Of a stretch of 32,000 nucleotides of DNA, positions 23,749 through 32,000 are shown piece by piece (positions within the stretch are counted from its first letter, which is position 1; each line of letters opens with the position of its first letter). A program made the position numbers and the translations under genes. The notes under the pieces are model-generated. The model searched no databases. It was given only the letters and a program-made list of their open reading frames with translations, and was not told the origin of the DNA. The stretch spans positions 3,240,001-3,272,000 of the forward strand of contig NC_020304.1 in assembly GCF_000341395.1 (NCBI RefSeq). Direction: 5' to 3'. The DNA comes from Desulfocapsa sulfexigens DSM 10523 (GTDB lineage: Bacteria; Desulfobacterota; Desulfobulbia; Desulfobulbales; Desulfocapsaceae).

Positions 23749-25107
23749 ATGATCAATCAAGAAGCAGACCAGATGTATTCCGTCACTTCACTCACCAGAA
23801 AACTTAAAAATCTGGTTGAAATGAAGTTTCGTTTTGTTAAGGTGGAAGGGGAAATTTCGAACCTTAAACGACCATTTTCAGGGCATTTGTACTTCACCTT
23901 AAAGGATGATGGTGCCCAGCTCAAAGGTGTACTTTTTAAGGGACAATCCCGCTATCTTGAAAAACCTCTTGAAGATGGACAACAGGTCATATGCCATGGC
24001 CGCATCTCAGTTTACGAACCACGAGGTGACTACCAGCTCGTGGTAGACAGTGTTGATTTTCAAGGGAGTGGAATGCTGCAGCTCCAATTTGAAAAACTCA
24101 AAAAACAGCTGCAGGGTGAAGGACTTTTTGCTCAGGAGAGGAAACGAAGTCTTCCCAGATTCCCAAGGGAGATTGTGTTGCTCACTTCCCCTAGTGGTGC
24201 TGCCGTCCATGATTTTCTAAAAATATGGCGCAAGCGGCATTTTCCTACCACTGTGAGTATTTACCCCGTGCCTGTTCAGGGAAAAGAGGCAGCAGCAGCG
24301 ATTGTCAAAGCCCTGGACATACTCAATGTTGTCCGTCCACACACAGATATCGTGGTGCTTTGTCGTGGTGGAGGATCCCTCGAGGATCTCTGGCCCTTTA
24401 ATGAGGAAATTCTGGCAAGGGCAATTGCACAATCCACCATCCCGGTTGTATCAGCTATAGGACATGAGGTGGATTTCACAATAAGTGACTTCTGTGCCGA
24501 TCTGAGAGCGCCAACACCTACGGCTGCTGCGGAAATGATAATCCCTGACGGTATTGCACTACAGGAAACAGTTGGACGTATGCAACGGATACTCACCAGA
24601 ACTGTTTTTGGAATATTGGAAGACTATCAGTACCGGATCAATCAAAACCGTAGATTGCTTGGAGACATGGATTTTCTCTTCACCAATTATTCTCTTCGTC
24701 TTGATCACGCATCTCTTAAGCTTGTTACCCTGATAAAAAAAGTAATCAGTAACAGGAGTGTTATCTGTGACGAATTTTACGCAAAACTTCATCACAATTC
24801 ACCGGTGGCAAAGGTACAACTTCAGGAACAACATCTTCATTTTGCTGCAGCAAAACTCTCCTATCTGTTCCGGACTTTAGTTGCGGACAAAGAGGCAGCG
24901 TTAGGCCGGCAGGCATCATTGCTTGATGCGGTCAGTCCACTGGCAACGATGTCGAGAGGATATTCCATCACAAATAAAATTGATACAAAATCTGGAAAAA
25001 AAACACTTATCAGAAATAGTGGACAGCTTAAAATTGACGACAGACTGGAAATTCGGTTTCACAGAGGAAAAGTAGAGTGCGGAGTGACCCATGTAACTGA
25101 TGAATAA
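23749..25107 (+). CDS. xseA: exodeoxyribonuclease VII large subunit
   Basis: VEGEISNLKRPFSGHLYFTLKDDGAQLKGVLF, YEPRGDYQLVV, RGGGSLEDLWPFNEE and GHEVDFTISDFCADLRAPTPTAAAE align with E. coli XseA. ATG 23773 is an alternative start. Confidence 0.9.
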   Translation: MINQEADQMYSVTSLTRKLKNLVEMKFRFVKVEGEISNLKRPFSGHLYFTLKDDGAQLKGVLFKGQSRYLEKPLEDGQQVICHGRISVYEPRGDYQLVVDSVDFQGSGMLQLQFEKLKKQLQGEGLFAQERKRSLPRFPREIVLLTSPSGAAVHDFLKIWRKRHFPTTVSIYPVPVQGKEAAAAIVKALDILNVVRPHTDIVVLCRGGGSLEDLWPFNEEILARAIAQSTIPVVSAIGHEVDFTISDFCADLRAPTPTAAAEMIIPDGIALQETVGRMQRILTRTVFGILEDYQYRINQNRRLLGDMDFLFTNYSLRLDHASLKLVTLIKKVISNRSVICDEFYAKLHHNSPVAKVQLQEQHLHFAAAKLSYLFRTLVADKEAALGRQASLLDAVSPLATMSRGYSITNKIDTKSGKKTLIRNSGQLKIDDRLEIRFHRGKVECGVTHVTDE

Positions 25108-25226
25108 ATCGTAGTTGTTCCGACTCGATCTGACAGTTTAAGAGATGAGACGTGATTAAACCTGACACTCAGTAGGCACCTTTTTACAGCGTAGCCACTT
25201 TCACAGTGATATTGCCGGTGAACATA

Positions 25227-26615
25227 TTAAAAATCAAGTGGGCTCTTTGCTTCCTTTTTCGTCGTACTCTTCACCGTATGAGTGTAAATCATGGTTGTCC
25301 TTACATCCGAATGTCCCATCAGTTCCTGTATTGTTCGGATATCATAATTGGCCTGCAGAAGATGGCTGGCAAAGGAATGACGAAACGTGTGTGAAGTAAT
25401 TCTTTTGGGTATTTTTGCCTTTTTCACAGCTCTTCTCAGGGCCTTTTGCAATGATGTCTCATGGATATGATAGCGCCGGTTTTCACCATTTTTGAGGATG
25501 TGTGTTAATTCTTTGGCCGGAAAAAACCACTGCCAGATAAATTCCCTCGGAGCATTCTTATATTTTTTCTCAAGTCTGTCGGGCAGAAAGACGCCATCAT
25601 AGCCTACTTTAAGATCTGCATCATGAACACTGCCAACAAAAGTCAACTGTTCTTTGAGCCTCCCTTTCAGTTTATCCGGAATAGGCACAGTGCGATCCTT
25701 TTTACCTTTCCCGTCATGTATAGTCAATATTCCCATATCAAAATTAAAATTGTGGACCCGAAAAGAAATACATTCAGAGATTCGCAGTCCGCATCCATAC
25801 ATGAGCTCGATCATTAATTTGTAAGGATTACTCATATAAGAAAGTACTATATCGATTTCTTCCCGGGATAAAACAACAGGGATATACGGCTTGTGTTTAG
25901 CCCGAACCACACCGTCAATTTTCCCAAAGTCGGACTTGAAGACATTTCGAAACAAATAAAGCAAAGCATTGAATGCTAAATTTTGACTCGATGCAGAAAC
26001 TTTCTTTTCTGTCGCCATAAACGATAAGAACGCTTTAACATCTTCCACCTCAACGAATTTGGGATCTTTGCTTTTTACAAAAGTCTGGAATTGCCTTGTA
26101 TACCCAACATAAGATTTCAATGTCCTTAGTGAGTAATGTCTCATCCTGATCGAGCTTTCGAGCTCCGAGTATACCTGCCGCCAGTCTACTCCCTTGTGTT
26201 TTTCAGCACTTTTTTCCGTTTCAGGGAGTACCTCTTTCATTTTTCTGGTAGCGATAGCAGTCTGTTTTACGCGGTTATCTTTGGCAACCTGAGCCTCGAT
26301 ATCATAAAAATTATGACTCTTTTCTGGTGGTTTCTTTTGTTGCCCTATTACTTCTTCTGAATTTTTCATCTTCCATAGCAAATGGATGGCGTCTTCTGCT
26401 TGCTTCAACATGAACGGTTTTTGATTTTTACTTTTCAGCTTAATCAAAAAAGCAGGCAAAGAGTCTTTTTCGCTCCATTTTAAAGAATATTTCGTGCAAA
26501 AATCGAGATAATATCGTAACCATTTCAGGTAGAAAGATTGGAAGCGTTGTTCCACACCCTGATCTTTGAGAAATTTTGAGTATTGGGCTGAGAATTCTTT
26601 GGGTAGCTTGATCAT
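25227..26615 (-). CDS. intI: integron integrase (tyrosine recombinase) with ~135-aa N-terminal extension
   Basis: It aligns along its length with IntI1. RHYSLRT, LMYGCGLRISE and HDGKGKKDR match. The IntI-specific insertion FLPDRLEKKYKNAPREFIWQWFFPA...RRYHIHETSLQKALRRAV matches IntI1 [23 protein letters not shown]...RRHHMYDQTFQRAFKRAV. The C-terminal HTFRHSFASHLLQANYDIRTIQELMGHSDVRTTMIYTH carries the catalytic Tyr. Confidence 0.92.
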   Translation of the reverse strand: MIKLPKEFSAQYSKFLKDQGVEQRFQSFYLKWLRYYLDFCTKYSLKWSEKDSLPAFLIKLKSKNQKPFMLKQAEDAIHLLWKMKNSEEVIGQQKKPPEKSHNFYDIEAQVAKDNRVKQTAIATRKMKEVLPETEKSAEKHKGVDWRQVYSELESSIRMRHYSLRTLKSYVGYTRQFQTFVKSKDPKFVEVEDVKAFLSFMATEKKVSASSQNLAFNALLYLFRNVFKSDFGKIDGVVRAKHKPYIPVVLSREEIDIVLSYMSNPYKLMIELMYGCGLRISECISFRVHNFNFDMGILTIHDGKGKKDRTVPIPDKLKGRLKEQLTFVGSVHDADLKVGYDGVFLPDRLEKKYKNAPREFIWQWFFPAKELTHILKNGENRRYHIHETSLQKALRRAVKKAKIPKRITSHTFRHSFASHLLQANYDIRTIQELMGHSDVRTTMIYTHTVKSTTKKEAKSPLDF

Positions 26616-26641
26616 AAATCGACTTAGGGTGTTAACTGGAA

Positions 26642-26764
26642 TCTAGATAACATTCACTGTGACTGGTTAACCAGAAGAAAATAGCCTATCATGGACCACT
26701 TCAGATTGTCAATGGAGATGGCGACCCGGAGTTATCTAGAAAACTAGACAATAACTTGTTGGGC
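26642..26764 (+). other. attI region with recombination core GTTGGGC (26758-26764) and candidate cassette promoter
   Basis: GTTGGGC is the exact complement of the inverse core GCCCAAC of the first attC, placing the crossover between G26758 and T26759. TAAC/GTTA-containing elements lie at 26642-26651, 26731-26740 and 26752-26755. A candidate outward promoter is TGGTTA (26664-26669), 17 nt, TATCAT (26687-26692); this is weak and unverified. Confidence 0.55.
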
Positions 26765-26773
26765 AACAAAAAA

Positions 26774-27118
26774 ATGAACAGACTACTTGCCTTAACCCTT
26801 ATACTTGCCACAATAACATTAACAAGTGGCTGCAGCACGATACTAGAGCGGGTTACCTACTCAGAAGAGAATCGAGGACAACTCAATTATTATCCGGCTA
26901 CACAATTTGACATTTTCACAATTAAAAGTGGAGGCGGACTCTATTGCAGTCCTGGTCCGGGAACATTGATTGTCGTCCCTCTTTCAATTATCGATTTGCC
27001 TATCTCATTAGTCACAGACACAATTATGCTTCCTGCCGACATAGCAAGGAAAAACAAAATAGATAAACAAAAACAAAACGAAGCAACCCACAAAGAGCAA
27101 GGCTCGGTGCCTAAATAA
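26774..27118 (+). CDS. cassette 1: YceK/YidQ-like small lipoprotein (DUF1375-like)
   Basis: MNRLLALTLILATITLTSGC has a lipobox. NYYPATQFDI and IIDLPISLVTDTIMLP resemble E. coli YceK (QYYPGVQWDV and ILDLPFSLVFDTLLLP). The start was moved to ATG 26774. Confidence 0.7.
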   Translation: MNRLLALTLILATITLTSGCSTILERVTYSEENRGQLNYYPATQFDIFTIKSGGGLYCSPGPGTLIVVPLSIIDLPISLVTDTIMLPADIARKNKIDKQKQNEATHKEQGSVPK

Positions 27119-27154
27119 ACAAAAACTACCTCAATACGTAGAGTTAAAAAAATT

Positions 27155-27278
27155 GCCCAACAATACGCTCAAGCACGACGCGCAAACTTGCGCTTTGCTA
27201 AATCGGCTTCGGCCATCTCAACACAACCCGAACTTACTTTAACCCAAGCTAGGCGCGCGTCTTAGCTTTGCGTTATAC
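27155..27278 (+). repeat. attC site 1 (124 bp, subtype A)
   Basis: R'' is GCCCAAC at 27155-27161 and R' is GTTATAC at 27272-27278. The arms GCTCAAGCACGACGCGC and GGCGCGCGTCTTAGC pair, with bulged bases on the 5' arm. The AAC-AATAC-GCTCAAGC layout resembles aadA-type attC (AAC-AATTC-GTTCAAGC). Confidence 0.88.
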
Positions 27279-27288
27279 CAATCAAACC

Positions 27289-28017
27289 ATGAAAGCACCT
27301 TGTACCCTACTCCTTATAACCTTCCTTTTTTCCCTGAATGGTTGCGCAGTTGTGACACATATTGGGCCGTATGAAGGAAAAATTGTAGATGCAGAAACTG
27401 GTAAGCCTATTGAGGGAGCTTTGATTTATTCTTACATATCCACAGAATCTCCTAGTGTAGCAGGAACGGTGTCACACTATGCTGGTTACACACAAACTTT
27501 TTCAGACCAAAATGGCTGTTTTAAAATAAGCAAGTTACTTTTCGCGTTTAGGCCACTAGCAATATGGGGTGATGAACATTTTATAATATCAAAACCTGAA
27601 TACATATCATCAGCATATACTTCACATGGTAACAACATTGAAGAATCTAAAGAGAATATTATTAGGTTAAAAAAATTTAAAAAAGAACCATATTTGAAAT
27701 CAAAAATTTATGAACCATATATACCTTACAGTATAACATATGAAGAACAAAAATACTTGGGAGTGATAAATGATATAAACAGAATGTATAAACTTCTTTC
27801 TCCATCCAAATTAACCATAGAAGAATATTACAATGTATTAAGTCAAACTAAAAACAAGGGCAATGTCGAATCAAAAAAATATTCCCATTATGAACTTGAA
27901 CTGTGGAAAGACTTTGGGGTAGCGTTACAAGTATATGAGCAAGAGTGGAAGAAAAGATCATTTACTCAAGAAAAACCAGGAGAGACTTTAGGAATTGAGT
28001 CACAAATCCTTAAATAA
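27289..28017 (+). CDS. cassette 2: orphan lipoprotein, N-terminal carboxypeptidase-regulatory-like beta domain, novel Lys/Tyr-rich C-terminal half
   Basis: MKAPCTLLLITFLFSLNGC has a lipobox. GKIVDAETGKPIEGALIY...DQNGCFKI resembles the CarboxypepD_reg fold motif. I do not recognise the remaining ~150 aa. The start was moved to ATG 27289, because the ORF-track TTG start lies inside attC1. Confidence 0.7.
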   Translation: MKAPCTLLLITFLFSLNGCAVVTHIGPYEGKIVDAETGKPIEGALIYSYISTESPSVAGTVSHYAGYTQTFSDQNGCFKISKLLFAFRPLAIWGDEHFIISKPEYISSAYTSHGNNIEESKENIIRLKKFKKEPYLKSKIYEPYIPYSITYEEQKYLGVINDINRMYKLLSPSKLTIEEYYNVLSQTKNKGNVESKKYSHYELELWKDFGVALQVYEQEWKKRSFTQEKPGETLGIESQILK

Positions 28018-28026
28018 ACAACAATG

Positions 28027-28146
28027 GTATAACAATTCGCTCAAGCACGACGCGCGAGCACGCCAGTTTTATCGGCTTCGGCCAACTCACTTCAACCCGA
28101 ACTTACTCAACCTCTGCTAGGCGCGCGTCTTAGCTTTGCGTTAGGG
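28027..28146 (+). repeat. attC site 2 (120 bp, subtype B)
   Basis: R'' GTATAAC (28027-28033) is the complement of the attC1 R' GTTATAC. R' is GTTAGGG at 28140-28146. It shares the arms GCTCAAGCACGACGCGC and GGCGCGCGTCTTAGCTTTGC with the other sites. Confidence 0.88.
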
Positions 28147-28152
28147 CCAAAA

Positions 28153-28620
28153 ATGAATGAGCCTGATATTCAAATTGAAATAGCATCTAAAAATGATGCT
28201 AATGAAATTTTGGAAATCCAAAAATCAGCCTTTCTAGGCCAAGCAGCCATTTATAACAACTATGAACTGCCACCGCTTACACAAAGCCTGGAGTCAATTG
28301 AAAATGAATTCGGTGAAAAAACCTTTTTGAAAGTTGTAATCAATGGGCAAATCATTGGGGCAGTCAGATTTAAGCAAAAAGAAGGCATCGTAACTATCGA
28401 TCGAATCGTAGTTAAACCAGAGTATCAAAATAAAGGCATTGGAACATTATTGCTTAAACAAATTGAAAAAATAGCTACAAATCCAAAGTCTTATCAATTG
28501 TTCACGGGCAACAAAAGCTCCAGAAATATTCATCTATACGAAAAATCAGGTTATAAAGTTATAAAAAAAGAAACTACTAACCAGGGTATCGAACTACTAA
28601 AAATGGAAAAATTGCCCTAA
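28153..28620 (+). CDS. cassette 3: GNAT family N-acetyltransferase
   Basis: 155 aa. The acetyl-CoA motif A is IVVKPEYQNKGIGTLLLKQIE, followed by HLYEKSGYKV. The ATG lies 12 nt inside the cassette boundary. The stop TAA (28618-28620) lies inside R'' of attC3. Confidence 0.88.
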   Translation: MNEPDIQIEIASKNDANEILEIQKSAFLGQAAIYNNYELPPLTQSLESIENEFGEKTFLKVVINGQIIGAVRFKQKEGIVTIDRIVVKPEYQNKGIGTLLLKQIEKIATNPKSYQLFTGNKSSRNIHLYEKSGYKVIKKETTNQGIELLKMEKLP

Positions 28621-28739
28621 CAATACGCTCAAGCACGACGCGCAAACTTGCGCTTCGCTAAATCGGCTTCGGCCATCTCAATTACAACTCTAACTTAACT
28701 TAACCCCGGCTAGGCGCGCGTCTTAGCTTTGCGTTATAT
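28615..28739 (+). repeat. attC site 3 (125 bp, subtype A)
   Basis: R'' CCCTAAC (28615-28621) is the complement of the attC2 R' GTTAGGG. R' is GTTATAT at 28733-28739. The 5' half is nearly identical to attC1. Confidence 0.88.
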
Positions 28740-28781
28740 GGCAAAACAATCACGAACTACACTTCATCTCTAATCTGCAAC

Positions 28782-28810
28782 TTGACAGAAAAGCTCATCA
28801 CAATTATAAT
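28782..28810 (+). promoter_or_regulatory. consensus sigma70 promoter of the vapBC cassette with repeated operator-like motif
   Basis: TTGACA (28782-28787), exactly 17 nt, TATAAT (28805-28810). The 9-mer ACAATTATA occurs twice (ACAATTATA-ATT-ACAATTATA) across and after the -10. The GAGGTG RBS lies 6 nt before ATG 28850. Confidence 0.65.
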
Positions 28811-28849
28811 TACAATTATATTATGAACAAATCTCAGTGAGGTGCGATT

Positions 28850-29083
28850 ATGGGTCAAGTAACTATCTATCTCGACAATGAGACAGAAAACAAATTGAAA
28901 AAAGCTGCCAAATCTAGTCACCTTTCCGTTAGCAAATGGGTTGCGGGGGTTATAGAAGAAAAAGTAACAACTGAATGGCCTCAGGATGTCGTCAAGTTGG
29001 CAGGCAGCTGGAAAGACGATTTTCCAACCATCCATGAGATAAGATCGACCACCGGCCATGACTCCCCAAGGGAGGAACTCTAA
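28850..29083 (+). CDS. vapB: cassette 4: type II antitoxin, ribbon-helix-helix (VapB-like)
   Basis: 77 aa. MGQVTIYLDNETENKLKKAAKSSHLSVSKWVAGVIEE is an RHH fold signature. The stop lies 2 nt before the PIN toxin start. Confidence 0.8.
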   Translation: MGQVTIYLDNETENKLKKAAKSSHLSVSKWVAGVIEEKVTTEWPQDVVKLAGSWKDDFPTIHEIRSTTGHDSPREEL

Positions 29084-29085
29084 AA

Positions 29086-29478
29086 TTGTATCTCCTTGAC
29101 ACAAACACACTTATTTATTTCTTCAAAGGTCTGGGTAATGTGGCAGAGAACCTACTGTCTAAATCCCCAAAAGATATTTCCATACCTTCAATTGCTCTTT
29201 ATGAACTTGAGGTGGGGATAGCAAAATCAAACAGCCCGAAAAAAAGAAAGAAACAACTAGAATCGCTAATCTCACGCATCACCGTATTACCCTTTGCTTC
29301 AAAAGAGGCCGAAGTTGCCGCAGTGATCAGAGCAGAACTTGAAAATATAGGCACACCAATAGGCCCCTATGACACTTTCATCGCAGGAATTGCCTTGAGT
29401 TCAAACGCTACACTAGTCACACACAACACAAAAGAATTCAATAGAGTTGAAGGCTTGAGCCTTGAAGACTGGTTCTAA
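29086..29478 (+). CDS. vapC: cassette 4: type II toxin VapC (PIN domain ribonuclease)
   Basis: (M)YLLDTNTLIYFFKG, YELEVG, YDTFIAGIAL and THNTKEF carry the PIN acidic residues. It uses a TTG start and is coupled to vapB. Confidence 0.88.
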   Translation: MYLLDTNTLIYFFKGLGNVAENLLSKSPKDISIPSIALYELEVGIAKSNSPKKRKKQLESLISRITVLPFASKEAEVAAVIRAELENIGTPIGPYDTFIAGIALSSNATLVTHNTKEFNRVEGLSLEDWF

Positions 29479-29488
29479 AAAAACTGCC

Positions 29489-29605
29489 ATATAATTCGCT
29501 CAAGCACGACGCGCGAGCACGCTAGTTTTATCAGCTTCGGCCAACTTAATACAACACGAACCTACTCAACCTCTGCCAGGCGCGCGTCTTAGCTTTGCGC
29601 TAATA
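29489..29605 (+). repeat. attC site 4 (117 bp, subtype B), degenerate at both R boxes
   Basis: The internal arms are identical to the other attCs. R'' reads ATATAAT-TCGC, lacking the AAC triplet; GCCATATAACAATTCGC is expected from attC3 R' GTTATATGGC, so 3 bp are missing. R' reads GCTAATA (29599-29605) instead of GTTRRRY. Confidence 0.75.
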
Positions 29606-29696
29606 TTGCCATGTCGAAGTTCTTAATATCCTACCAATACCTCTATTTTACCTTAGTCCTGACAGGGTAGAACCCCCTAGTTTTCCGGAATTGTTT

Positions 29697-29742
29697 AGAA
29701 ATGGAGCAACCACAAAGAAGAGCTTACCAAAGAATATCACGA
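29697..29742 (+). repeat. direct repeat copy A flanking the parDE module
   Basis: agaaatggagcaaccacaaagaagagcttaccaaagaatatcacga matches 30495-30540 at 41 of 46 positions. It overlaps the last two codons of parE. Confidence 0.7.
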
Positions 29743-30054
29743 ATCAATGAGGGCTTCATAATGCCGCCCTCCATAAAAAACATTTAGAATCTGTACCGTC
29801 GAATCTGCCTCATCTACAAGGAATGCTGCAACAGCTTTGTTATCAAGAGGATAAATTCTTAACCCGTCCATCAGATCACTTCGCAATTGACCTCTTATTG
29901 GAAAAGTTTCTAGCTCCTGACACTTGGACTTGAGCCTTTCCATATAGTTCCAAGCCCTTTCGGGGAAACCACTTTGCTCAACTATATAAAGATAAATATC
30001 TTCTAGGTCCTTGATCGCATCCGGCATAAAATAGACACGATATTTATCCATCAA
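29737..30054 (-). CDS. parE: type II toxin, RelE/ParE family
   Basis: 105 aa. YRVYFMPDAIKDLEDIYLYI...FPERAWNYMERLKSKCQELETFPIRG...ILNVFYGGRHYE is the ParE pattern. It overlaps parD by 11 nt. Confidence 0.85.
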   Translation of the reverse strand: MMDKYRVYFMPDAIKDLEDIYLYIVEQSGFPERAWNYMERLKSKCQELETFPIRGQLRSDLMDGLRIYPLDNKAVAAFLVDEADSTVQILNVFYGGRHYEALIDS

Positions 30055-30331
30055 TTTCCCCTTTCAGTTTTCGTTTGTGTAACTCCTCAATTCTGCTAAA
30101 TGCTTCTTCAATGGGTACTGGTTCACCATTATTCTTGGATTTCTCCAAACGGTTACGTATGAGGGCCAGACGTATTTCATGCTCTTCTTCTTTTTTTTGC
30201 CAAAGCCTCATCGCTTCTCTTATCAACTCGCTGGTAGAGCCATAGGAGCCAGAGCTCACTTTTTGCTTGATTGAGGAAAGCATATCCCGGGGTAGAGTAA
30301 TTGTAATTCGTTCCGCTTTTTCTTGTTGCAT
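30044..30331 (-). CDS. parD: type II antitoxin ParD (RHH, COG3609-like)
   Basis: ITITLPRDMLSSIKQKVSSGSYGSTSELIREAMRLWQKKEEE is the ParD signature. An AAGGAGG RBS lies 8 nt upstream of the ATG. Confidence 0.85.
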   Translation of the reverse strand: MQQEKAERITITLPRDMLSSIKQKVSSGSYGSTSELIREAMRLWQKKEEEHEIRLALIRNRLEKSKNNGEPVPIEEAFSRIEELHKRKLKGEIDG

Positions 30332-30393
30332 TGTGTTGACCTCCTTGTGAGTATGATTTAATCATACCACTATTAATTACATGGGGCAACCGC

Positions 30394-30424
30394 AATGCAA
30401 CTCAATATTTTGAGCTGTTGCATT
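30394..30424 (-). promoter_or_regulatory. imperfect palindrome upstream of parD, candidate operator/promoter
   Basis: AATGCAACTCAA-tatt-TTGAGcTGTTGCATT lies 63-93 nt upstream of the parD start. On the minus strand, TTGCAT, 17 nt, ATTAAT could serve as -35 and -10. Confidence 0.4.
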
Positions 30425-30494
30425 TAAAATGTGCTTAACTAAATGGTGACTTTAACCACAGTAAACAGACTTGACTATTCAATTGAAATTGATC

Positions 30495-30540
30495 AGAAAT
30501 GGAGCAACTACAAAGAAGAGCTTACCGAAGAACACCTCGA
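30495..30540 (+). repeat. direct repeat copy B flanking the parDE module
   Basis: agaaatggagcaactacaaagaagagcttaccgaagaacacctcga. Weaker similarity continues on both sides: gaaattgatc versus ggaattgttt upstream, and tcaatcgggtttcacaa versus tcaatgagggcttcataa downstream. Confidence 0.7.
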
Positions 30541-30711
30541 TATTTCAATCGGGTTTCACAAGTTGCGTAATACTTAATACTATTGGGTCGGACCAAGTTA
30601 CCCAACTGATATAGCAATAGAAATACCTCAAAAACACCCGTTTTAATCCCTTATGGCCTCCTTCCCCCCAAAAAAAAGGACCCTCTAAGGAAATACAGAG
30701 GGCTGGTATCC

Positions 30712-31245
30712 ATGCCAAGAGCAAACTAACATTATATACCCGGCTGCGTCTGGCACATCACCCACAGATGTCTATGGACCCTGTGTACCTGACTATATTG
30801 CCACTTCCAACCATATCCACCTGCTGGTGGTGGACACCAGGGAAGATGTAATTCCCAACAGCATGCTGCTCATTGCAGGCCGGACTGTACAGGAGTATAA
30901 CCAGCGAAAGAGTCGAAAAGGCACCTTCTGGGAGGATCGATACCATGCCAGTGCGGTGGAGACGGATGAACATCTGGCAAAGTGTCTGGTCTAGATCGAC
31001 CTCAACATGGTGCGGGCAGGAGGGGTGAAACACCCGTTGGAATATACGTTGAGCGGCTTCAATGAAATCCAGAGGCCGAAACAGCGGTATACCGTGATCG
31101 ATCGCCTTTGATCGATCTTTTTTCCGTTGGCAGTCAAGAACATTTTCGTTAGAAACATAAACAGTGGGTTGAGACAGAACTGGGGGCAGATAAACAACAA
31201 CGGAAGGCTTTTTGGAGTGAATCAATCGCTGTATGCGTATTCCAG
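30712..31245 (+). pseudogene. decayed IS200/IS605-type (RayT-like) Y1 HUH transposase
   Basis: Frame 1 reads MPRAN*HYIPGCVWHITHRC. Frame 2 reads DYIATSNHIHLLVVD...GTFWEDRYHASAVETDEHLAKCLV*IDLNMVRAGGVKHP...SGFNEI. A third frame reads KAFWSESIAV. There are stops at 30727 and 30992, at least two frameshifts, and about 35 aa missing between HRC and the HUH motif. Confidence 0.7.
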
Positions 31246-31251
31246 TGAATC

Positions 31252-31327
31252 CGGCCACCCAGTCCACTTGATTCCGGCCAGTAATTCCACGGCAAAGCGG
31301 CCACCCAGTCCAGAGGATTCCGGCCAG
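31252..31327. repeat. two 30-bp direct repeats in the IS21 terminus
   Basis: CGGCCACCCAGTCCA-ctt-GATTCCGGCCAG at 31252-31281 and CGGCCACCCAGTCCA-gag-GATTCCGGCCAG at 31298-31327 match at 27 of 30 positions. Confidence 0.7.
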
Positions 31328-31379
31328 GGTGTCGGAGCGTAGCGACGCGAATATTTCCTTCTTACTCTGTGTGTTGCTC

Positions 31380-32000
31380 TCACGTCAAGCGTGCTTTCTT
31401 TTTTCTCATAGATTCTCCTTTCAGTTTGATTTTGTGAGCGGCATGTACCAGACGGTCAAGAATGGCGTCGGCTAAAGTCGGATCTCCGATCCGCTCATGC
31501 CAGTGCTCTACCGGTAATTGACTGGTTACCAAGGTAGATTTGAGGCCGTGTCTGTCTTCCAGTATTTCTAGTAAATCATGGCGTTGCTCCTGGTTGAGTG
31601 TGGCCAGTCCATAGTCATCAAGTACCAATAGATCTGTTTTTGAATAGACAGTCAGTAACTTCAGATAACGGCCATCCCCCTTGGCAAGAGCCAGATCTTC
31701 AAAGAGTTTACTCAGACGGAGATAGAGAGCACTATAGCCTTCTCTGCATGCCTTTTGGGCCAAGGCACAGGCAAGATAGGATTTGCCGACTCCAGTGGGG
31801 CCGGTAATAAGCAGATTGGTATGTTCCTTTATCCAGTTGCAGTCAGCCAGCCTGGTTACCAGTGACCTATCCAGACCACGCGGATGACGGAAGTCTACAT
31901 CCTCGATTGAGCCATCCTGCCGCAGCTTTGCCTTTCTGAGTCTGGTCTGAAGTTTTCTGGTTTCCCTGACCGCCTGCTCGCGGTCAAGTAACAGACCGAG
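31380..32000 (-). CDS. istB: IS21-family helper ATPase IstB (5' end outside the window)
   Basis: The frame is open from the window edge: LGLLLDREQAVRETRKLQTRLRKAKL...LLITGPTGVGKSYLACALAQKACREGYSALY...LLVLDDYG...LVTSQLPVEHWHE...ADAILDRLVH. It has Walker A, Walker B and the IstB C-terminal motifs. The ORF-track start at 31763 is an internal Met. Confidence 0.9.
   Translation of the reverse strand, partial: LGLLLDREQAVRETRKLQTRLRKAKLRQDGSIEDVDFRHPRGLDRSLVTRLADCNWIKEHTNLLITGPTGVGKSYLACALAQKACREGYSALYLRLSKLFEDLALAKGDGRYLKLLTVYSKTDLLVLDDYGLATLNQEQRHDLLEILEDRHGLKSTLVTSQLPVEHWHERIGDPTLADAILDRLVHAAHKIKLKGESMRKKKARLT

Follow-up and report, generated by a model that had tools for sequence, protein, structure and literature searches.

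Two predicted lipoprotein cassettes, probably the first of a small chromosomal integron in Desulfocapsa sulfexigens DSM 10523

Positions 26759-28140 of a stretch of the D. sulfexigens DSM 10523 chromosome (the window, i.e. the whole 32,000 nucleotides that were analysed) are best explained as two promoterless cassettes, each with a single ORF for a predicted lipoprotein, at the head of a sedentary chromosomal integron with four cassettes in all; taken as a whole, we regard this explanation as probable. The array comprises, in this order, intI, attI, and cassettes for a DUF1375 lipoprotein, a beta-sandwich lipoprotein, a GNAT protein and a VapBC pair.

Integron organization

The integrase gene intI (25227-26615, minus strand) encodes a protein of 462 aa with the Pfam domains Phage_integrase and SAM_4, and the integron-specific signature is present: TIGR02249 was matched with 362.7 bits (cut-off 265; E 1.8e-108) over model positions 3-313 of 315. 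Residues 150-461 represent the integron-integrase core; they are preceded by an N-terminal extension of ~145 aa, which is also kept in the IntI homologs of two other loci (L037 and L030) and which gave no alignment with the protein's own SAM-like domain in BLASTP. The attI region (26616-26758, plus strand) was delimited by reading of the sequence; its crossover lies between G26758 and T26759 within GTTGGGC, and cassette 1 is therefore taken to start at 26759.

Four attC sites of ~120 nt each (84% mean column identity) are found in the array and, judged by their alignment, are all of one lineage-specific type. The invariant blocks CGCTCAAGCACGACGCGC and GGCGCGCGTCTTAGCTTTGCG each occur four times in the window (zero expected), and the bottom strands fold into long imperfect hairpins with bulged bases. 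The G of R' is located at 27272, 28140, 28733 and 29599; the first two of these positions define cassette 1 (26759-27272, plus strand; from the attI crossover to G27272 of attC1 R') and cassette 2 (27273-28140, plus strand; from the R' crossover of attC1 to that of attC2), in agreement with the boundaries given in the original prediction, which had been made from the sequence alone. attC1 (27155-27278, plus strand; R'' GCCCAAC at 27155-27161, R' GTTATAC at 27272-27278) and attC2 (28027-28146, plus strand; R'' GTATAAC at 28027-28033, R' GTTAGGG at 28140-28146) were both assigned by alignment and hairpin folding.

Cassette 3 (28141-28733, plus strand) consists of attC3 and one GNAT ORF (28153-28620, 155 aa; Pfam Acetyltransf_10, 9.3e-19, and Acetyltransf_1, 2.5e-15), which reached no equivalog threshold in NCBIfam; there is no second ORF between 28141 and 28733, and the description of a stand-alone GNAT cassette holds. 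Cassette 4 (28734-29599, plus strand) encodes a VapBC-like toxin-antitoxin pair, with an RHH-like ORF (28850-29083) and a PIN ORF (29086-29478; PF01850, 4.7e-16), and has a consensus sigma-70 promoter of its own at 28782-28810 (12/12 positions); the R' of attC4 is degenerate (GCTAATA). Downstream of the array, IS fragments were observed. An Rfam scan of positions 25000-32000 gave no match, and no homologs of cassettes 1-3 were found in 31 loci with the same attC type.

Only 15-16 nt precede the ATG in each of cassettes 1 and 2; an internal promoter therefore has no room, and the term promoterless was appropriate for both. Transcription of their ORFs would start upstream, at a promoter within the intI/attI region, the cassette promoter Pc being presumed to lie in the attI region or at the 5' end of intI. 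A sigma-70 consensus scan of this region revealed no convincing promoter; the best candidate, and the only promoter-like site near attI, is weak (TTGAGA-18-GAGAAT at 26566-26595, 9/12 positions). No obvious Shine-Dalgarno sequence precedes either ORF.

The array resembles other sedentary chromosomal arrays (the Vibrio superintegron, Xanthomonas integrons) in that intI is divergent from promoterless single-ORF cassettes with homogeneous attCs, in that a toxin-antitoxin cassette has its own promoter, and in that the cassettes are mostly of unknown function, many encoding exported proteins. Unlike those, it is very small (four attCs in the window), is hosted by a sulfur disproportionator of the Desulfobulbales, and has an IntI with the long N-terminal extension described above. 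No paper on an integron of D. sulfexigens was found in the literature.

Cassette 1: a DUF1375 lipoprotein

The ORF of cassette 1 (26774-27118, plus strand; 114 aa, named 'putative periplasmic lipoprotein' by NCBI) encodes a lipoprotein of the DUF1375 (YceK/YidQ) family, with the signal MNRLLALTLILATITLTSG directly followed by the lipobox Cys. It matched PF07119 with 74.6 bits (cut-off 20.3; E 7.3e-21; model positions 2-51 of 51), and its lipobox ILATITLTSGC (Cys20) fits the PROSITE PS51257-type pattern, which bears out the YceK/YidQ-like lipoprotein proposed originally. The length of the frame is unexceptional, as it was equalled in 47 of 2000 shuffles; the ORF is accepted as a gene because of the Pfam match (E 7e-21).

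Scores of 39 bits (threshold 123) and 42.1 bits (threshold 91) were obtained against the E. coli YceK/YidQ equivalogs NF007555 and NF008628, respectively, and judged by these profiles the protein is a divergent member of the DUF1375 family only, not an ortholog of YceK or YidQ. It has the lipobox ..SGC, the small size and the motif YYPATQ.D ... IIDLP.SLV.DT..LP.DI in common with the enterobacterial proteins, and differs from them by an internal insertion, a Lys-rich tail and an integron cassette as the carrier. Among the relatives found, the nearest (P0266, 39% identity) is encoded in a chromosome, beside a metH-like gene. In the literature, no assigned function was found for YceK, YidQ or DUF1375.

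Cassette 2: a predicted beta-sandwich lipoprotein with a helical C-terminus

The ORF of cassette 2 (27289-28017, plus strand; 242 aa) includes the peptide KEPYLKSKIYEPYIPYSITYEEQKYLG quoted in the original prediction and is of foreign composition (33% GC, versus 44% for the core). Its open frame, with 247 codons in DNA of 36% GC, is longer than in all of the 2000 shuffles (maximum 182). An alternative TTG start at 27268 (249 aa) was rejected because its position, within attC1, precedes the cassette crossover. Residues 1-19 represent a signal with lipobox (LNG/C), followed by a predicted sandwich (residues 22-127) and helices (residues 134-139, 152-167, 174-188 and 200-226). Lipoprotein-type signals are thereby recognised in both proteins, as had been proposed from LTSGC and LNGC, the latter being off the strict PROSITE pattern and [LVI][ASTVI][GAS]C with its Asn at -2. 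Export of both proteins would be by Sec, with Cys20 (cassette 1) or Cys19 (cassette 2) as the lipidated residue and signal peptidase II as the cleaving enzyme, and the Lol pathway would send both to the outer membrane, since the Cys is followed by Ser or Ala and not by Asp; this sorting rule is that of E. coli, whereas the host belongs to a different phylum.

Structure prediction (AF2) from the single sequence gave a pLDDT of 38, and a model based on the family alignment (127-sequence MSA; pLDDT 86.5, pTM 0.79) was used. It predicts a signal helix, a transthyretin/CarboxypepD_reg-like beta-sandwich (residues 22-127, strands with pLDDT >90) and a helical C-terminal domain, the helices of the latter being modelled from four long-form sequences only. 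Foldseek matched the sandwich to the TTR-like domain of human carboxypeptidase D (5aq0; TM 0.67-0.70 on target) and to CnaB, pilin and transthyretin-like proteins (E 1e-4 to 1e-2); in PDB and BFVD, only generic beta-sandwiches were matched, and the helical domain was without a match. The carboxypeptidase-regulatory-like N-terminal sandwich that had been suggested is thus supported by the model and by 5aq0, with Pfam scores for PF13620 (15.3 vs 32.3 bits) and PF13715 (17.9 vs 32.2 bits) below the gathering threshold; among the relatives, PF13715 was matched in 35 of 47 and PF13620 in 28 of 47 at E<=0.01 (best 1.9e-5 and 1.5e-6). Common to the protein and CarboxypepD_reg/transthyretin domains are the fold of residues 22-127 and the signature G.V.D....P..GA.V ... 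T.TD..G.F, whereas the sub-threshold Pfam scores and the fusion to a lipid anchor and a helical domain set it apart.

A word-indexed protein search returned only the protein itself, and it had been considered an orphan; this was overturned by an exhaustive HMMER search, which revealed 352 related cluster representatives at E<=1e-3, 38 of these at E<=1e-10; P0002 (1.5e-34) and P0003 (1.2e-33) were among them, aligned over residues 9-220. By homology, the protein is a member of a family that is uncharacterised and known almost only from metagenomes, and not of a well-characterised one. Searches of NCBIfam with the protein, and of PDB sequences with it and the profiles A2 and A4, gave no match. 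The radical-SAM-associated putative lipoprotein model TIGR04134 did not match cassette 2 and no radical SAM neighbour was seen; weak matches to it were obtained for 11 of 47 relatives (best E 1e-4). Most relatives are metagenomic lipoproteins of ~190 aa (Thermodesulfovibrionales, Nitrospiraceae and Rokubacteria MAGs; annotated 'hypothetical' or 'carboxypeptidase-like regulatory domain-containing protein'), to which residues 5-175 align (phmmer E 1e-17 to 1e-6, alignments out to residues 158-175, similarity across the sandwich and the L(P)KLK..ER region), with the lipobox, GPYxGKVVDxETGxPIEGA, an FKPGY-type strand and an L(P/K)KLK motif in common. The cassette 2 protein differs from them in being solitary in a cassette, in ~65 extra C-terminal residues, and in having Q for the near-invariant E69; together with T72S, E69Q is one of two deviations of the D. 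sulfexigens copy at near-invariant family positions. Of the C-terminal ~150 aa, for which no match had been recognised, residues ~110-175 have their homologous counterpart at the C-terminal end of the ~190-aa family, and residues 175-226 are common to three long-form relatives.

These three full-length relatives (35-44% identity) are all in cassette-like contexts with other attC types, and no more than four places were found to harbour the long form, which has extra helices around E..LWK.FG; every one of them is cassette-like. Locus L002 is a same-strand array of five ORFs, the intergenic regions of which open with R''-like sites, close with GTTCGCT, GTTGGCT, GTTATGC or GTTCGGC, and fold into attC-like hairpins; at L042, the sequence ...AACGTTATACC lies 20 nt upstream of the ATG of a long-form relative that is frameshifted; and an attC of L002 begins with the very sequence with which L001 ends, AACAAGTCATTCAA. 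Among the long forms, pS is 0.69-0.82 (saturated) and pN 0.35-0.45, and nucleotide identity by codon position follows the order 2 > 1 > 3. Selective constraint on the long forms is indicated by this comparison, since synonymous sites are saturated while protein similarity is kept; the lack of conservation or purifying selection that would have spoken against the original prediction was not found.

Gene context of the short relatives and a candidate partner

The short relatives are encoded in a three-gene operon, with a gene for a Glucodextran_B/PKD surface protein upstream and one for a secreted protein of ~800 aa downstream. In all five distinct chromosomal contexts inspected, the gene for the short lipoprotein either overlaps with the downstream gene or lies directly against it, and the ~800-aa proteins are homologous to each other. 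The latter contain an H-x3-D-x5-H motif and matched Zn_dep_PLPC weakly and below threshold (E 0.02-0.03 in two of four). At locus L006, three paralogs of the lipoprotein alternate with N-terminal fragments of this putative partner. No genes for the operon partners are present in cassette 2 or elsewhere in the 32-kb window.

Conservation within the family extends to structural residues of the beta-sandwich but to no catalytic motif; for the cassette 2 protein, a non-enzymatic mode of action, in which it binds a partner that is secreted or resides in the envelope, would therefore be most likely. As the partner class, the secreted, weakly Zn-phospholipase-C-like ~800-aa protein appears most likely, a proposal drawn from relatives whose identity to the long form of cassette 2 is only ~30%.

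Alternative explanations

The deposited NCBI/UniRef entry of the cassette 2 protein has 221 aa, matching residues 22-242, and would imply a GTG start (V22) and a cytoplasmic protein without signal peptide. However, homologs align from residues 5-10 onwards, with the hydrophobic segment and the G-C lipobox included; P0003 has LNGCAVV in common with cassette 2; and the L042 relative has its ATG 20 nt after R' and the same signal. Since 96 of 117 homologs retain the lipobox Cys (Cys19; 85 of 123 retain the Gly at -1), the deposited start is probably wrong, and we consider the deposited gene model extremely improbable. A reading of cassettes 1 and 2 as passengers that are silent or in decay, kept in the array yet unexpressed or non-functional in the host, is consistent with several of the above observations, i.e. 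the lack of a strong Pc and of a Shine-Dalgarno sequence, the substitutions E69Q and T72S, the frameshift in the L042 relative, the AT-rich foreign composition, and the degenerate R' of attC4 with IS fragments downstream. Yet both cassettes are attI-proximal, and attI-proximal cassettes are normally the best expressed; furthermore, intI is intact, the 242-codon frame of cassette 2 is intact in DNA of 33% GC with none of the 2000 shuffles as long, and constraint at the protein level is seen across the long forms, all of which makes the passenger status unlikely.

A more specific role than binding would be that of an orphan neutralising or immunity-type lipoprotein. In this reading, members of the family would normally bind the secreted Zn-phospholipase-C-like protein of the adjacent downstream gene, and the stand-alone long form of the cassette would shield the envelope against such enzymes of competitors. 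Tli-type immunity lipoproteins are small, periplasm-facing and encoded beside lipase or phospholipase genes, and stand-alone copies occur in recombinase-associated arrays. The gene neighbourhood in the five contexts, the motif and weak Zn_dep_PLPC matches of the ~800-aa protein, the interleaved paralogs and partner fragments at L006, and the occurrence of the long forms alone in cassettes would all fit such a role. However, the likeness to Tli-type and orphan-immunity arrays is an analogy, without sequence or fold relationship; the lipoprotein gene is upstream of that of the partner, which has a Sec signal and not the architecture of a contact-dependent toxin; the Zn-phospholipase-C assignment is sub-threshold; and the long form, with its extra domain, is ~30% identical to the operon-borne forms. 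We therefore regard this role as rather unlikely, and still somewhat more doubtful is the wider proposal that CarboxypepD_reg-like lipoproteins may be dedicated binding or neutralising partners of a new secreted Zn-phospholipase-C-like class, whose long form integrons would circulate as a protection cassette. An anti-phage or superinfection-exclusion function of the cassettes has general precedent, as some exclusion proteins are lipoproteins and integrons can hold defence cassettes, but appears very improbable: neither lipoprotein matched PADLOC models (E<=0.1) or PHROG, no relatives were found by tblastn in plasmids and phages or in viral and JGI metagenome contigs scanned with the long-form alignment, and relatives reside in housekeeping-type chromosomal operons. 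The other candidate roles of the original prediction, i.e. toxin exclusion, adhesion and surface modification, gained neither support nor contradiction from the analysis.

Biological implications

Most integron cassettes are without known function, and the two lipoprotein cassettes of D. sulfexigens are a modest case of such integron 'dark matter', typical in kind, by which the current understanding is not overturned. Signal peptides have been reported as enriched in cassette proteins (16.1% vs 6.8%; PMC10661359). The analysis places an apparent orphan in a real family, and probably corrects a start-codon annotation by which its signal peptide had been hidden. To date, the long form of this family has come only from cassettes, whose attC sites are of three or more different types; this is direct evidence for its movement as a cassette. 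The family is furthermore tied to an unstudied operon that is conserved and encodes a putative phospholipase-C-like secreted protein, which leads to the binding hypothesis for cassette 2; if the immunity role were true, the cassette would represent an integron-borne interbacterial defence outside the usual repertoire of antibiotic resistance and toxin-antitoxin systems.

Integron and cassette array

The region is part of a chromosomal integron. The integrase gene (tyrosine recombinase, 462 aa; 25227-26615, minus strand) scored 362.7 bits against TIGR02249 (cut-off 265), and four repeats of about 120 nt (mean column identity 84%) lie downstream on the plus strand; their invariant blocks CGCTCAAGCACGACGCGC and GGCGCGCGTCTTAGCTTTGCG occur in four copies each in the window, with none expected. 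The repeats are arranged as attC sites, with R''-like GCCCAAC and GTATAAC and R' GTTATAC and GTTAGGG, and each bottom strand can be folded into a long, imperfect hairpin that contains bulged bases. The G of R' is located at 27272, 28140, 28733 and 29599, and the attI-side crossover follows G26758, before TT within GTTGGGC; these positions fix the limits of the two lipoprotein cassettes, 26759-27272 (cassette 1) and 27273-28140 (cassette 2), exactly as originally predicted.

The N-terminus of the integrase is about 145 aa longer than the TIGR02249 core (aa 150-461). This extension is kept in homologs beside the same attC type, i.e. in Hydrosulfovibrio ferrireducens (L037, aligned aa 12-461) and in locus L030 (aligned aa 1-461), and gave a sub-threshold match to Phage_int_SAM_4 (E 0.01); a second SAM-like domain, present in one clade of integron integrases, is a possible explanation.

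Cassette 2 is followed by a GNAT cassette and by cassette 4 (28734-29599), which encodes a VapBC-like (RHH and PIN) toxin-antitoxin pair and brings its own promoter, a perfect match to the sigma-70 consensus (TTGACA-17-TATAAT, 28782-28810). The attC of cassette 4 has a degenerate R' (GCTAATA in place of GTTA...) and may thereby set the array's end. The integron is typical of the sedentary chromosomal kind: its attC sites are homogeneous, a toxin-antitoxin cassette supplies its own promoter, and it includes cassettes of unknown function. Exact copies of the 21-nt 3' block of the attC are present at 31 loci in GTDB genomes. Desulfobulbaceae, Desulfurivibrionaceae and Thermodesulfobacteriota MAGs account for most of them; a few lie on short contigs that were binned as Chloroflexota, Bacteroidales, Planctomycetota or Sulfurovum, pointing to mis-binning or transfer. 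No homologs of cassettes 1-3 were found in these 31 loci.

Past the last attC, a ParDE-like toxin-antitoxin pair (29737-30331, minus strand) is flanked by a 54-nt direct repeat (29689-29742 and 30487-30540; 87% identical). Beyond the array there are also minus-strand ORFs in a GC-richer block (30758-31763, about 50% GC), which by eye look like IS/transposase remnants, e.g. an IstB-like helper (31380-31763), and three repeats spaced 23 nt (31252-31327).

Predicted expression of the lipoprotein cassettes

The description of both cassettes as promoterless follows from their anatomy, because only 15-16 nt precede each ATG. As the sole promoter-like site upstream of them is weak (26566-26595; 9 of 12 positions match), we infer their expression only: an upstream promoter would most likely transcribe both attI-proximal cassettes, and both products would be exported and lipidated, at Cys20 (cassette 1) and Cys19 (cassette 2). 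With Ser or Ala at +2, our reading of the E. coli Lol rule would have them sorted to the outer membrane.

The cassette 1 protein

The 114-aa product of cassette 1 matched Pfam DUF1375 (PF07119) with 74.6 bits (cut-off 20.3) and carries a PROSITE-type lipobox (ILATITLTSG/C), in agreement with its prediction as a YceK/YidQ-like lipoprotein. It scored far under the equivalog cut-offs that NCBIfam sets for E. coli YidQ and YceK, and is therefore a divergent family member rather than an ortholog of either. Its only non-self relative in a word-indexed search was P0266 (39% identity), which is encoded beside a metH-like gene in an ordinary stretch of chromosome. The statement that the family has no assigned function held, in that no paper giving YceK, YidQ or DUF1375 a function was found in a literature search.

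The cassette 2 protein: family, start codon and structure

A word-indexed search with the 242-aa cassette 2 protein returned the self match only; exhaustive phmmer against 1.84 billion cluster representatives, however, yielded 352 proteins at E<=1e-3 and 38 at E<=1e-10, so the protein is not the orphan it was taken for, although its family is uncharacterised. Most matches are short forms of about 180-210 aa, aligned to residues 5-110 and many on to 158-175, which share a hydrophobic leader with (S/T)GC at its end and the motifs GPYxGKVVDxETGEPIEGAVV, T.TD..GEF, FKPGY and LPKLKTxEER. Nearly all come from metagenomes or MAGs (Thermodesulfovibrionales, Nitrospiraceae, Rokubacteria), and all are annotated as 'hypothetical' or 'carboxypeptidase-like regulatory domain-containing'. 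None of the curated Pfam and NCBIfam models takes family members above threshold; TIGR04134 ('radical SAM-associated putative lipoprotein') weakly matched 11 of the 47 members in the family alignment (best E 1e-4), and the cassette 2 protein itself did not match it.

Whole-length relatives, including the last ~65 residues with an invariant E..LWK.FG, are limited to P0002 (285 aa), P0003 (279 aa) and a gene on contig L042. The latter is the closest long form (44% identity after bridging a frameshift); in this Logan assembly the gene (L042:46-710) is split near nt 222, which may reflect a pseudogene or an assembly error.

The deposited NCBI/UniRef model comprises 221 aa from V22 (GTG 27352), and thus is without the signal peptide and lipobox. 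Since homolog alignments begin at residues 5-10, a Cys is aligned to C19 in 96 of 117 sequences and a Gly stands at -1 in 85 of 123, and P0003 has LNGCAVV in common with the cassette 2 protein, ATG 27289 is the likely start, and the product is a predicted lipoprotein by homology. Of the two lipoboxes originally proposed, LTSGC conforms to the PROSITE type; LNGC fails the strict pattern (Asn at -2).

AlphaFold2 on a 127-sequence alignment gave a model with pLDDT 86.5 and pTM 0.79 (the single-sequence model, pLDDT 38, was of no use). In it, residues 3-16 form a signal helix and 22-127 a beta-sandwich, followed by helices at 134-139, 152-167, 174-188 and 200-226. In PDB and BFVD, Foldseek matched transthyretin-like sandwiches only, with weak E-values (1e-4 to 1e-2), including the TTR-like domain of human carboxypeptidase D (5aq0; TM 0.67-0.70 on target), CnaB/pilin domains and transthyretin-related proteins. 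The modelled sandwich and the 5aq0 match support the proposed carboxypeptidase-regulatory-like N-terminus. The C-terminal part, said to match nothing, indeed has no structural analogue in PDB or BFVD for its helices, but it does have sequence homologs.

None of 2000 shuffles of this 36% GC DNA gave an open frame as long as the actual 247 codons (maximum 182). Synonymous differences between the four long forms are saturated (pS 0.69-0.82), non-synonymous ones lie at 0.35-0.45, and nucleotide identity is highest at codon position 2, followed by 1 and 3. This points to protein-level constraint, although two residues deviate in D. sulfexigens, with Q in place of the near-invariant E69 and S in place of T72. 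The ORF has 33% GC versus 44% in the core genes around it, a difference that fits horizontal acquisition.

Genomic context of relatives

P0002 is encoded on L002, a 3.5-kb metagenome contig with five ORFs on one strand. Because its spacers have R''-like starts, end in GTTCGCT, GTTGGCT, GTTATGC or GTTCGGC, and hold inverted repeats that fold as attC-like hairpins, L002 is a cassette array with attC types unlike the window's. L042 starts with ...AACGTTATACC 20 nt 5' of the ATG, an R' identical to the window's, and contig L001 terminates in AACAAGTCATTCAA, which is also how one L002 attC begins. All four known long forms are therefore in cassette-like contexts.

The short form occurs in a conserved, unstudied three-gene module (L003:1-3488; L005:3684-9047; L006:4761-10132; L039; L040:1299-3601). 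Five distinct contexts were inspected (L003/4, L005, L006/7, L039, L040/41), and in each a Glucodextran_B/PKD/beta-propeller surface protein gene precedes the lipoprotein gene, which overlaps or directly adjoins the gene of a Sec-signal protein of about 800 aa, homologous between contexts; this protein has H-x3-D-x5-H and, in two of four cases, weak Zn-dependent phospholipase C matches (E 0.02-0.03). L006 carries three lipoprotein paralogs in alternation with N-terminal pieces (123 and 126 aa) of the ~800-aa protein. On the metagenome contig L040 (3-4114), the module sits between xseA and xseB, and the integron lies directly downstream of xseA (exonuclease VII large subunit, 23749-25107); either chance or an insertion hotspot common to both may explain this.

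Possible function and significance

A non-enzymatic binding role is favoured for the cassette 2 protein, because conservation within the family falls on the sandwich scaffold and shows no catalytic constellation. As a class of partner, the Zn-PLC-like exoprotein with which short relatives appear translationally coupled would be the best candidate; no gene for this ~800-aa partner is present in the 32-kb window. The more specific idea that cassette 2 acts as a stand-alone neutralising or immunity-like cassette is attractive, thinly supported and, in our view, improbable. Phage exclusion, one of the roles first put forward, found no support: PADLOC and PHROG searches gave no matches for either lipoprotein, and no relatives were found in phages, viral contigs or plasmids.

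Delivery of envelope proteins by an integron is an already known pattern, since cassette-encoded proteins are documented to be enriched in signal peptides (16.1% vs 6.8%; PMC10661359). The two-cassette observation is confirmed and its interpretation partly supported; the modest new leads are a cassette-restricted long form and a conserved operon of the short form.
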